From a virus (taxonomy: Duplodnaviria > Heunggongvirae > Uroviricota > Caudoviricetes), in the IMG/VR virus record IMGVR_UViG_3300029095_000223: 16,931 nucleotides of DNA; one strand, given 5' to 3'. Positions 5,011 through 9,222 of this stretch are shown piece by piece; position 1 is the first letter of the stretch; each line of letters starts with the position of its first letter. The notes below the pieces were generated by a model. It saw only the letters and a program-made list of their open reading frames with translations. It was not told the DNA's origin and ran no database searches. The translations under genes and the position numbers were made by a program.

Positions 5011-6034
<1,024 letters not shown>

Positions 6035-6038
<4 letters not shown>

Positions 6039-6346
6039 AGATATTTATGATGAGGACGCTCGTGCTTATTGGCAGGATTTTCAATCTTAAAGGAGTACTG
6101 ATGCTGCAGATAAGACTCAACTTTTTCTGACAATTTTTCTGCTACTTCCAGGAAGACTTGCCGGACGCTCCTTCTGGCTGCTGCCTCATAAAACTCCAGC
6201 GCAGCTCCTTCAACACGGTCCATGGCGACATCCAGGTCAAAAATTTCACCGTCAAAGCGTTCTTTGTCCTGTAAGGCTACAGTTACCGTAACTTTATTCT
6301 CAAAATTACGGACTCCTTTCACAACCAGTTCATAGTCTTGAGTCAT
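6035..6346 (-). CDS. YdfR-like protein (DUF1327-type) within the lysis cassette
   Basis: 103-aa ORF (MTQDYELVVKGVRNFENKVTVTVALQDKERFDGE...) between holin and lysozyme, overlapping the lysozyme start by 4 nt. Name assigned by context and size from memory. Confidence 0.65.
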
Positions 6347-6350
6347 TGGA

Positions 6351-6566
6351 TTACTCTCCTCTCGCAGCCTTACGCCTGTCTTCTTTAATCTTGAAATAAA
6401 GATTTGTCAGATACGTCAGCAGGCCAAAAACCAGGCTACCCAGCACACCGATTGCAGCCCACTGTGACGGAGTTACTTTATCGAGTAACTGCAATGCCCA
6501 GAAACCAGCATTACCCGCCGATGTGCCATAGGCAACACCTGTTGTTAACTTATCCATTGATTTCAT
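6351..6566 (-). CDS. Holin (EssQ-like), 71 aa
   Basis: From Met26 of the track ORF ([31 protein letters not shown]...[32 protein letters not shown]): two hydrophobic segments and a charged C-terminus. GGTGAGG Shine-Dalgarno before the ATG at 6566. First gene of the lysis cassette. Confidence 0.75.
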
Positions 6567-6785
6567 ATCCTCACCCCGATGTACACGGATGGTGCAATAT
6601 GTTTGAAAAGATCGGAGTCTACGGGGTAGTTTTGACAGCACACGTTGTTCTCAACGGCGCTAAAAAAACATACACATTAAAAATGTGGGTAATTATTTTG
6701 AAAGAAAGTCATATATAAAATAATAATACGAGAAATGTTTTCATATTTAGTGTACTGTATACGGCCATTTATACAGGAAAAGCCT

Positions 6786-7018: not shown

Positions 7019-7038
7019 AAACCCGCCTGAGCGGGTTT
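7019..7038 (-). terminator. Intrinsic terminator (minus-strand sense; A-tract on the other side gives possible bidirectional function)
   Basis: aaacccgc-ctga-gcgggttt hairpin (8-bp stem). On the minus strand it is followed by TTTTTATTAT. Lies downstream of cspB (minus) and of the zinc-ribbon gene (plus). Confidence 0.5.
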
Positions 7039-7319
7039 GAGATTGTGGTGCTTTTTGTGGGAGTCATCCACTTACGCACTTTGTTTTGCCATGCCAGCAG
7101 TTAGCTTCTGCTGTAAAACTATTCATGCAGCAAACCTGCACTTCACCACAATGGTTAGCATACTTTTCCTGATTAAGATTTTGCCAAATATGCTAGCCAT
7201 TGTTTCATGTATTGGACCTCCTTACTTTTTATTAAAGAGATCCAATATTCACTACTCTGTCCGTATCTCTACTCAGGCATCAGCCTTCTTCGTTATCGTA
7301 TACAGACGAGCGATGAATT

Positions 7320-7535
7320 TTAATCAGTAATGATGACATTTGCTGCTGCAGGACCTTTAGCACCACTCTCTATAGAGAAGGTAACCTTTTGACCTTCAAA
7401 TAAGGTTCGATAATTATCATTCTGAATCGCAGAAAAATGCACAAACACATCTTTACTACCATCAACAGGAGAAATAAAGCCGAAACCTTTATCAGCGTTA
7501 AACCATTTTACTAAACCAGTCATTTTATTTGACAT
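7320..7535 (-). CDS. cspB: Cold-shock protein CspB (CspA family)
   Basis: 71-aa translation [71 protein letters not shown]. Divergent from cspF as in Qin. Confidence 0.9.
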
Positions 7536-7835
7536 TCTACATTCCTTAACTTGAGCCTTTCGGCATAAATGGTTTGCATAACAGAAACGACTTCGTACTT
7601 AATTGGAGAGACTCAAAGAAGGAATAAGTGAATAACACCTGAAATGAGAACTGCTTTAGTAAACTACTTCGTATATCGTCTGTTCTTCAAACCGACGCAA
7701 TCATTAACGCATAGTTGAACATATGAAGCAATGTTTATTTTAGACATCCAGCCATCTTCAACCCCATCAAAAAACTATAGCTTTCTTCAGGAACGTGTGT
7801 ATAGTGCGCCAAGTTATCAGTATTAAGGAATTTTT

Positions 7836-8048
7836 TTGTCCCGTAAAATGACAGGAATTGTCAAAACCTTTGACGGCAAAAGCGGCAAGGGTCTTATCAC
7901 CCCATCCGATGGTCGTATCGATGTCCAGCTTCATGTTTCAGCGCTCAATCTCCGCGATGCAGAAGAAATTACCACCGGATTACGCGTGGAATTTTGCCGG
8001 ATAAATGGTCTGCGTGGCCCTTCAGCTGCCAATGTTTACCTTTCATGA
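7836..8048 (+). CDS. cspF: Cold-shock protein family member CspF
   Basis: 70-aa translation [70 protein letters not shown]: divergent CspA-family member as recalled for CspF/CspH. Divergent from cspB across an approximately 300-bp promoter region. Confidence 0.9.
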
Positions 8049-8102
8049 GCTATATTAAAGCTTTAATTTCAGGCCCCATCGGATCACACATGGAGAGTTT
8101 TT

Positions 8103-8192
8103 ATGAATAACCCCGTCTGTCTTGATGACTGGTTGATTGGCTTTAAAAGCTTATGCTGTACTTTGGCCGTAATAGCTCTGCTAATAATATAA
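8103..8192 (+). CDS. Candidate 29-aa small hydrophobic protein (unannotated small ORF)
   Basis: ATG at 8103 preceded by GGAGAG at 6-nt spacing; [32 protein letters not shown] at 8190-8192. Only sequence-level support. Confidence 0.25.
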
Positions 8193-8340
8193 TAAGCAGA
8201 CTCATTGTGTTTAGGGACATTGTACTGGAAGAAAACATTTTAAACATCAGGCAAATAACCAAGTCACCAGCTAAATAATAAGTTAACAGACATGAGTCCC
8301 GGGATGAGATTCAACATTACCATTGCCCCATTTAAAGCAC

Positions 8341-8364
8341 AAAACCCGCTCATCAGCGGGTTTT
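8341..8364. terminator. Bidirectional-looking intrinsic terminator hairpin; candidate tR'-like terminator for the Q-dependent late promoter and/or cspF terminator
   Basis: aaaacccgct-catc-agcgggtttt: perfect 10-bp stem with a 4-nt loop. CTACTTTTTC follows on the plus strand; a U-rich run follows on the minus-strand RNA. Confidence 0.5.
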
Positions 8365-8409
8365 CTACTTTTTCTTAACGTCGGGTATACAAAGCCCATC
8401 GTTGAAAAA

Positions 8410-8438
8410 ATTTTATCCATATTTTTTGAAAAATGCAA
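8410..8438 (-). promoter_or_regulatory. Sigma-70 promoter, candidate Q-dependent late promoter (PR'-like)
   Basis: Minus-strand sequence TTGCAT-17 nt-TAAAAT (-35 at 8433-8438, -10 at 8410-8415), about 30 nt downstream of the Q stop, with the hairpin about 40-60 nt further on. This is the canonical position of PR'/qut/tR' in lambdoid phages. Confidence 0.45.
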
Positions 8439-8469
8439 ACATCATGTCGCCATCTTCAGCAAAAATCAT

Positions 8470-9222
8470 TTATCTCGTCACCTTCCTCAATTGCGCTTCC
8501 GCGTATGCTTCTTCCTGCCAGCACTTTGTTACCAGTTTACCAATGACGTCCGCATACCCCTTATACCACTGATAATCGGTCAGGTCTGGTACCAGCTTCT
8601 GGACATGACGTCGTGCCAGCGTGGTCGGTAAACGACTAAACCGGTTTCCATTACAACGCCCACAAATCTTATATACCGGTACGCCATGAAACCGGGTTCT
8701 TTTTTCATCCAGAACAATCCCTTTACCCTTACACCCTCTGCACGCTGTGCTGGCTTCGCCCTTACCATGGCAATGCTGACATAGTTCCTTCACCCATTCT
8801 TCCTTGATTACAGATTCCCCGCGTCTGTAGTGTTTCACCACTTCGCGCAATACATTATAAAATCCCGTACCTGAACAATGCTCACAGCGAGCCTTACTTG
8901 CCGCAGACCTGGAGTAATCAGCAAAGGCAAAACTCACGAGGTAAGGAATAATCTGTAACCGGATTTCTTCACTCAATTTGTTCAATGTCGGGTTATCCAG
9001 TGCCATCGCGTAATTTAGCAGGCCTTCAATCGCAAACTGAGGGTCCTGAACACCAACTTTTGCCAGAAATAAGGCCAACCCAAGTGGTGCTTTCGACTGC
9101 ACCATCCCCTGCGCTGCCATTACATCCGTAATTGTTAAACAACCGGTGCCTGTCGCTGGAGCGTCATCGCTCAATTTTGGAGATTTTGGGGAGTAATATT
9201 TTGGTAAGGCTTCAAGGTTCAT
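8470..9222 (-). CDS. Late-gene antiterminator Q (QuuQ-like), 250 aa
   Basis: From Met11 of the track ORF (MNLEALPKYYSPK...), with a GGAGAA Shine-Dalgarno before the ATG at 9222. Cys-rich zinc-binding motifs (CEHCSGTG, CQHCHGKG, CRGCKGKG, CGRCNG) typical of Q antiterminators. Lies upstream of the lysis cassette. Confidence 0.85.
   Translation of the reverse strand: MNLEALPKYYSPKSPKLSDDAPATGTGCLTITDVMAAQGMVQSKAPLGLALFLAKVGVQDPQFAIEGLLNYAMALDNPTLNKLSEEIRLQIIPYLVSFAFADYSRSAASKARCEHCSGTGFYNVLREVVKHYRRGESVIKEEWVKELCQHCHGKGEASTACRGCKGKGIVLDEKRTRFHGVPVYKICGRCNGNRFSRLPTTLARRHVQKLVPDLTDYQWYKGYADVIGKLVTKCWQEEAYAEAQLRKVTR

Follow-up and report, generated by a model that had tools for sequence, protein, structure and literature searches.

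The IMG/VR virus record IMGVR_UViG_3300029095_000223, a stretch of 16,931 nucleotides referred to below as the window, is the defective Qin cryptic prophage of Escherichia coli K-12, and in the region considered here its sequence matches that of E. coli K-12 MG1655, as well as those of about 1,250 further complete E. coli genomes, at 100% identity. On the minus strand, directly downstream of the Q antiterminator gene quuQ (ydfT), there is a promoter-like sequence followed by a hairpin, and it is very probable that together these form the Qin late regulatory cassette, built like the PR'-qut-tR' cassette of phage lambda. A PR'/tR'-like unit had been suggested at this place by an original prediction made from the letters of the sequence, and it is now supported by the membership of QuuQ in the Q-lambda family, by the presence of the lambda pause element, by the conservation of the module together with Q, and by an RNA 3' end mapped in vivo.

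The quuQ gene occupies positions 8470 to 9222 (minus strand) and encodes 250 amino acids, an assignment that follows from Pfam and Protein Data Bank (PDB) matches and from the K-12 annotation. Its TAA stop codon lies at 8472–8470, and 31 nt past it we find the -35 hexamer TTGCAT (8433–8438), separated by the 17-nt spacer TTTTCAAAAAATATGGA (8416–8432) from the -10 hexamer TAAAAT (8410–8415). The arrangement TTGCAT-N17-TAAAAT foreseen about 30 nt past the Q stop on the minus strand is therefore present, at 8438–8410, although calling it near-consensus overstates the match, which is 3/6 to TTGACA in the -35, 5/6 in the -10, and 8 of the 12 consensus positions in all. In the phi80 record the same hexamer, TTGCAT, is given as the -35 of pR', and it is invariant in 27 distinct relatives of the module (see below).

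Located 6 nt past the -10 hexamer is AACGATGGG, which has the same bases, at the same 6-nt distance, as positions +1 to +9 of lambda PR'. In the lambda promoter, sigma70 re-binds AACGAT (+1 to +6) as a -10-like element and GGG at +7 to +9 acts as the discriminator (PMC5001585), and the resulting promoter-proximal pause at +16/+17 is needed by Q (PMC5001585, PMC9388147). By identity to lambda PR', positions 8395 to 8403 (minus strand) of Qin would comprise the transcript start and a sigma70-dependent pause element with the same AACGAT and GGG parts at +1 to +6 and +7 to +9 respectively. The Qin late transcript would accordingly start at A8403, the original prediction having placed the start at about 8402 and having suggested a check of the initial transcribed region for a -10-like element that induces pausing; that element is there, identical to lambda and at the same spacing.

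Promoter-like matches taken alone are not beyond chance in this region, with seven found against 4.8 expected. The composite TTG-N20-TAnnnT-N6-AACGATGGG, however, occurs once in the window where 0.04 occurrences are expected, and the site stands above chance because of AACGATGGG situated 6 nt past the -10. The spacer is also distinctive: across the 27 modules 12 of its 17 columns are invariant and its mean pairwise identity is 93.5%, compared with about 86% in the flanks. Its core, TTTTCAAAAAAT (8421–8432), does not vary among the relatives and resembles the lambda spacer only in part. From this conservation we infer that the spacer is the QuuQ-binding element. The phi80 record places its Q site in the PR' spacer, and the lambda Q-binding element (QBE) also lies there. 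A further motif, GATGGCNACAT at 8445–8456 (minus strand), 5' of the -35, is common to Qin and lambda (L002, 723–733) and is mostly kept in the relatives.

The tR' hairpin, AAAACCCGCT-GATG-AGCGGGTTTT, consists of a perfect 10-bp stem with a GATG loop and occupies 8341–8364 (minus strand), or +40 to +63 when counted from A8403. It begins 45 nt past the -10, which agrees with the perfect 10-bp hairpin described earlier as lying within about 60 nt; GTGCTTT comes next, and the U-rich tail UUUUGUGC spans 8337–8344. A 74-nt RNA predicted from 8403 has a folding energy of -30.4 kcal/mol (z = -6.7, 200 shuffles). The Term-seq data of Adams et al. 2021 (PMC7815308, Supplementary file 1) contain a minus-strand 3' end, classed as 'orphan', at U00096.3 position 1642356, which is listed with the flanking sequence ...GAGCGGGTTTTGTG[C]TTTAAATGGG. 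The small gene ynfS lies at MG1655 1642122–1642211 (PMC6001520), from which the offset between genome and window is 1,634,019; position 1642356 is thus window 8337, the predicted +67, 8 nt past the G+C-rich core of the stem and 133 nt past the quuQ stop. The position occurs three times in the file, which has one sheet per condition (lysogeny broth, LB, at an optical density of 0.4, LB at an optical density of 2.0, and M63), and two of the three entries carry 103,591 and 55,367.6 reads (PMC7815308). A distance of 8 nt past the stem core is the classic position for intrinsic termination, and the tR' terminator works in vivo on minus-strand transcripts, whatever their start.

The same table lists a second minus-strand 'orphan' 3' end, in one condition, at 1642188 (window 8169; 87,904 reads; PMC7815308). 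It lies 168 nt past tR', antisense to ynfS, with a TCTGCT/AGCAGA hairpin at 8177–8200 (minus strand), and could reflect either read-through of tR' or another promoter.

The product of quuQ matches Pfam PF03589 with an E-value of 3.6e-54, and also DnaJ_CXXCXGXG. Against the PDB it matches Q-lambda in 7ubm (E-value 4.6e-36) and in 4mo1, with both the N- and the C-terminal parts aligning, and on these matches we assign QuuQ to the Q-lambda family of antiterminators. Residues ~121–160 form an extra zinc-finger insert of about 40 amino acids relative to lambda Q, situated in the zinc-ribbon 'arm', and bring the number of CxxC motifs to four, two more than in lambda Q. This long-arm form is common to the Q proteins of SfV and the Stx2c phages (250 amino acids) and of phi80 (269 amino acids), and long-arm QuuQ may read its Q-binding element differently from lambda Q.

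To describe the conservation of the module we took relatives from viral contigs and phage records, which gave 27 distinct versions. Mean pairwise identity among these is 85.7% in the 3' coding sequence of Q and 86.5% from the stop codon to the -35, 100% in the -35 itself, 93.5% in the spacer, 90.4% in the -10 and 99.2% in the pause element; it is then 82% at +10 to +27, 56% in the linker and 78% in the hairpin, and 36–40% past the U-tract. Pairing in the hairpin is kept in the relatives, with three pairs altered on both sides. Similarity ends right past the U-tract, where ten unrelated downstream contexts begin, and this profile indicates that Q moves together with the promoter, pause element and terminator as a single block, whose boundary is the terminator. 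The same order of parts is seen in P22, phi80, Klebsiella phage 5 LV-2017, SEN22 and Erwinia phage vB_EhrS_59, with Q proteins that share 33–42% identity with QuuQ. Three of these parts, pR', the Q site and the terminator, are marked as features in the phi80 record, and a terminator is annotated at the orthologous site in the SfV and Ayreon records. The layout in Qin is homologous to that of lambda PR' and goes beyond mere likeness, QuuQ being a member of the Q-lambda family.

The record of PhiR42_1 annotates a different feature here, a hypothetical protein (PV340562.1), and in Qin the corresponding stretch is an open reading frame for 51 amino acids at 8283–8438 (minus strand) with a TTG start. 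That this stretch serves to encode a protein is extremely unlikely, as the frame takes its TTG start codon from the -35 hexamer and continues across the terminator. We reject it because the frame is not conserved: the linker differs by indels of 1 and 2 nt among the relatives, which are unrelated past the U-tract.

A simpler account of the hairpin is that it is a plain terminator of the ydfU-quuQ operon and, in the reverse direction, of cspF-ynfS, that the promoter hexamers are a silent relic, and that the mapped 3' end is that of quuQ mRNA. The hairpin is indeed terminator-like on both strands, having A4 and T4 flanks and, on the plus strand, the tail CTACTTTTTC facing cspF-ynfS. Several observations weigh against a lambda-like cassette, and the first three of them also speak for this simpler account. 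The 3' end, 133 nt past the quuQ stop, could stem from transcripts of the quuQ operon and not from PR'. The -35 is weak, with half of its positions matching the consensus, and the constitutive sigma70 promoters listed in a genomic SELEX (systematic evolution of ligands by exponential enrichment) study include one in the spacer between essQ and cspB and none in that between quuQ and cspF. In lambda the repositioned sigma region 4 docks at a -35-like TTGACT located 1 bp upstream of the pause element (PMC9388147), and the equivalent sequence in Qin is TTTTTT (3/6), or TTTTCT (4/6) in the relatives. No transcript start at the PR' position came to light in the supplementary data of RNET-seq, Cappable-seq and SMRT-Cappable-seq studies. 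Finally, Qin is a defective prophage, and QuuQ may be neither expressed nor active in K-12.

Set against the operon-terminator account is the conservation of the -35, spacer and pause element, which exceeds that of the adjacent Q coding sequence and is unlike what would be expected of a relic. The -10 points in the same direction: TAAAAT is found in the K-12 type only, most relatives having TAAGAT or TAGGAT, and the K-12 hexamer is therefore one step nearer to consensus. An identical module is present in complete phage records, and the Term-seq table lists no plus-strand 3' end at the tR' hairpin, the minus-strand end being the one entry there (PMC7815308). We therefore consider it very unlikely that the hairpin is a plain operon terminator, and favor the lambda-like late cassette.

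In the cassette that we propose, sigma70 RNA polymerase would initiate at about A8403 on the minus strand, whereupon sigma region 2 would re-bind the -10-like AACGAT (+1 to +6), with GGG at +7 to +9 serving as the discriminator, and the polymerase would pause at about +15 to +17. In the absence of Q it would resume and stop at the tR' hairpin, giving an RNA of about 67 nt that ends at 8337. With QuuQ present, the protein would bind the conserved spacer DNA and load onto the paused complex, probably with NusA, and the modified polymerase would pass both tR' and a second terminator at 7019–7038. Read-through transcription would then run antisense over ynfS and cspF, in the sense direction through cspB, and into essQ-ydfR-rrrQ-rzpQ.

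The leader of this predicted transcript has a further feature. Folding of the Qin RNA gives a 5' stem-loop (8377–8403, minus strand) in which AACG (+1 to +4) pairs with CGUU (+24 to +27) and UGGG (+6 to +9) pairs with CCCG (+19 to +22), and the 5' stem recurs in lambda, P22, phi80 and others. We collected about 450 loci from five Q-lambda subfamilies (L003–L460) and used an alignment-free test for complementarity, with shuffle and head-swap controls. In a first pass 91 unique 34-nt leaders were grouped by their first four bases. CGTT is present in 91% of the AACG leaders (n = 53; CATT in 9%, TGTT in 4%), CATT in 87% of the AATG leaders (n = 15; CGTT in 27%, TGTT in 0%), and TGTT in 100% of the AACA leaders (n = 22; CGTT in 18%, CATT in 5%), and rarer variants obey the same rule, AAGAAT occurring with ATTCTT and AGCGA with TCGCT. 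A second pass with a slightly looser anchor yielded 132 unique 40-nt leaders, in 121 of which the bases at +1 to +4 recur as their reverse complement between +10 and +34, compared with means of 14.1 (maximum 26) for shuffled tails and 11.1 (maximum 18) when heads are swapped between classes.

The arm pairs in the RNA are AACG/CGUU, AACA/UGUU, AAUGA/UCAUU and AAGAAU/AUUCUU, with the complement at about +14 to +30, and in all four of the classes of recent single-base variants (4/4) the changes are transitions that preserve a G-U pair. The spacing between the arms varies from 14 to 30 nt, and the bottom-strand copy is without the T that a functional -10-like element requires; both properties favor base pairing in the RNA over a protein site or a second pause element. 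Minimum free energy folding, on the other side, recovers the 5' stem in just 16 of the 31 representative leaders, as compared with 5.5 in shuffled sequences (maximum 12), the A/U-rich AACA/UGUU stems being weak. RNAalifold found no structure in an ungapped MAFFT alignment of 31 diverse leaders because the loop lengths differ.

The covariation of the first 4–5 transcript bases with their complement suggests a selected 5'-terminal RNA stem. It is possible, although we put this forward as a tentative proposal with slightly less than an even chance of being correct, that the leader RNA is itself under selection and that two constraints act on the pause element, which would be both a DNA signal and one arm of an RNA stem that starts from exactly +1. 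Because the sequences are related and the modules recombine as blocks, the independent covariation events are few, corresponding to about 4–6 classes. We found no description of covariation between the pause element and its complement in the literature searched, the older lambda literature lying outside that search.

These features of the leader also bear on whether the main present role of the unit in K-12 might be to supply a constitutive, trans-acting small RNA of about 67 nt, antitermination being vestigial. There is precedent for regulatory RNAs derived from PR', in that StxS of Shiga-toxin phages (PMC7547250) and IsrK of Gifsy-1 (PMC4825925) are short RNAs that arise by termination just past a Q-regulated late promoter and are constitutive in lysogens. 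The abundant 3' end, with its three entries in the condition-by-condition Term-seq file, the stable two-hairpin fold (z = -5.6) and the covarying 5' stem would all be in keeping with such a role. Against it, conservation is lowest, at 56%, in the linker that joins the two hairpins, and we found no target, chaperone-binding data or phenotype. Rfam gives no match at the PR'-tR' site at the gathering score, the weak matches being terminator look-alikes, and the isrK RNA model (RF01394) scores 16.6 bits where the gathering score is 50. As this score is below the threshold and the Q of Gifsy-1 is of the Q82 type, we reject isrK as a homologue of the Qin RNA and regard it as an analogue only. A principal role as a small RNA thus seems unlikely, and we retain the antitermination cassette as the preferred interpretation.

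The genes in and beyond the cassette have the annotated order, along the minus strand, ydfU, quuQ/ydfT (-), ynfS (+), cspF (+), cspB (-), ynfU (+), essQ-ydfR-rrrQ-rzpQ (-) and cspI. Both cspF (7836–8048) and ynfS (8103–8192; PMC6001520) are on the plus strand and would be antisense to any read-through transcript from PR', which would cover them over 7836–8192. The cspB gene (7320–7535, minus strand) has the same orientation as PR' and its own cold-shock leader, a match to the Rfam cspA thermoregulator at 7304–7696 (158.8 bits). The lysis cassette essQ-ydfR-rrrQ-rzpQ (5011–6566, minus strand; from annotation and open reading frames) is the presumed target of Q-dependent read-through. The order in which the csp genes precede the lysis genes, with cspF antisense, cspB in sense and then essQ, was correctly given in the original prediction, but its description as unusual goes too far. 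The interval between Q and the lysis genes is a recognised site for cargo ('moron') genes (PMC3851460), the ten downstream contexts noted above begin there, and the complete phage records of PhiR42_1 and Tritos have the order Q, csp genes, holin gene (S). In a common Tritos-like variant (L084, 4206–4408; also L036 and L039) about 250 bp including ynfS are missing and cspF, which is frameshifted, lies directly past the terminator, cspB being intact. An antisense gene within a late operon is the less common feature.

Between cspB and ynfU there is a second, strong intrinsic terminator (7019–7038, minus strand), an 8-bp stem followed by a T-run, which is terminator-like on the minus strand and has a core nearly that of tR' (AAACCCGC...GCGGGTTT). 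A late transcript that reaches the lysis genes must read through this terminator too. A plus-strand Term-seq 3' end, 1641060, falls on the same hairpin (PMC7815308). The strongest minus-strand 3' end nearby is at 1641224/1641226 (window 7205–7207; 0.6–1.2 million reads; PMC7815308); it is without a hairpin and lies on the ATG of a Shine-Dalgarno-plus-ATG motif 3' of cspB. Situated 5' of essQ is TTTATA-16-AATAAT (6692–6719, minus strand), a hexamer pair that the genomic SELEX study counts among its constitutive sigma70 promoters and reports together with H-NS binding, so that the lysis genes may also be served by a promoter that is independent of Q. A plus-strand region of Rho-dependent termination is listed at 1643015 (window ~8996, inside quuQ) as 'antisense ydfT', which implies that some plus-strand transcription either crosses the tR' hairpin into quuQ or starts past the hairpin.

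With the cassette, an intergenic stretch of E. coli K-12 that had no annotation gains a function, and the 'orphan' Term-seq 3' end at 1642356 on the genome would be accounted for; our search for publications dealing with quuQ (ydfT) or with a late promoter of Qin gave nothing relevant. Expression of QuuQ is predicted to turn on the Qin lysis genes and cspB, with transcription running antisense over cspF and ynfS. If the covarying 5' stem is real, one of the best-studied cassettes in gene regulation would gain an element at the level of the RNA.

Among known systems, the phage 82 PR' is similar in that it, too, drives late transcription, has a sigma70-dependent pause and is followed by an early terminator. 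In phage 82, however, an extended -10 is combined with a pause element at about +9 to +14, a GCC discriminator at +15 to +17, a pause at +25 and a transcript that starts with AAA (PMC5001585), whereas the Qin element would lie at +1 to +6; Q82 belongs to Pfam PF06323 and Qin has PF03589 only. A Q82-type cassette is rejected for Qin by the Pfam and PDB matches and by the position of the pause element. The predicted Qin RNA resembles StxS and IsrK in its position directly past the Q gene and in being ended by the first terminator, although IsrK comes from a Q82-type cassette and has no real sequence homology to it.

Much closer are SfV, Ayreon, mEp460 and the Stx2c and Stx2k phages, whose Q proteins are 90–95% identical to QuuQ and in which promoter, pause element and terminator are as in Qin. 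In the Stx2c phage L088 (3150–5640) the module has about 84% DNA identity and its Q 94%, with methylase and tRNA genes following and stx beyond, and the same Q-PR'-tR' module is present in an Stx2k phage record and in Lys8385Vzw. These orthologous modules differ from Qin in their cargo (methylase, tRNAs and stx in the Stx2c phages; csp genes in Qin) and in the -10, which is mostly TAAGAT. Because the same module is located upstream of stx2c in Stx2c-converting phages, Qin of K-12 could be used as a safe model of that toxin switch. More distant is phi80, with a Q that is 36% identical and with pR', Q site and terminator annotated.

In comparison with lambda itself there are clear differences. 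The terminated Qin RNA is predicted to be about 67 nt, whereas in lambda the hairpin and U-tract are located about 190 nt downstream, and the lambda 6S RNA is roughly 190 nt in length. The spacer, and so presumably the QBE, is not the same, and the -35-like TTGACT by the pause element is absent in Qin; QuuQ has the insert of about 40 amino acids with two extra CxxC motifs, and Qin has about 1.8 kb of cargo, partly antisense, from the terminator to the holin gene. The likenesses are nevertheless extensive. Lambda reads TTGACT-N17-TAAATT-tgactc-AACGATGGG and Qin reads TTGCAT-N17-TAAAAT-tttttc-AACGATGGG; the two have the same Q family, the same order of parts, an intrinsic terminator ahead of the late genes, and a 5' arm, AACG(A), for which a complement, CGUU, is present further downstream. 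The Qin cassette is an unannotated member of the textbook lambda-type system.

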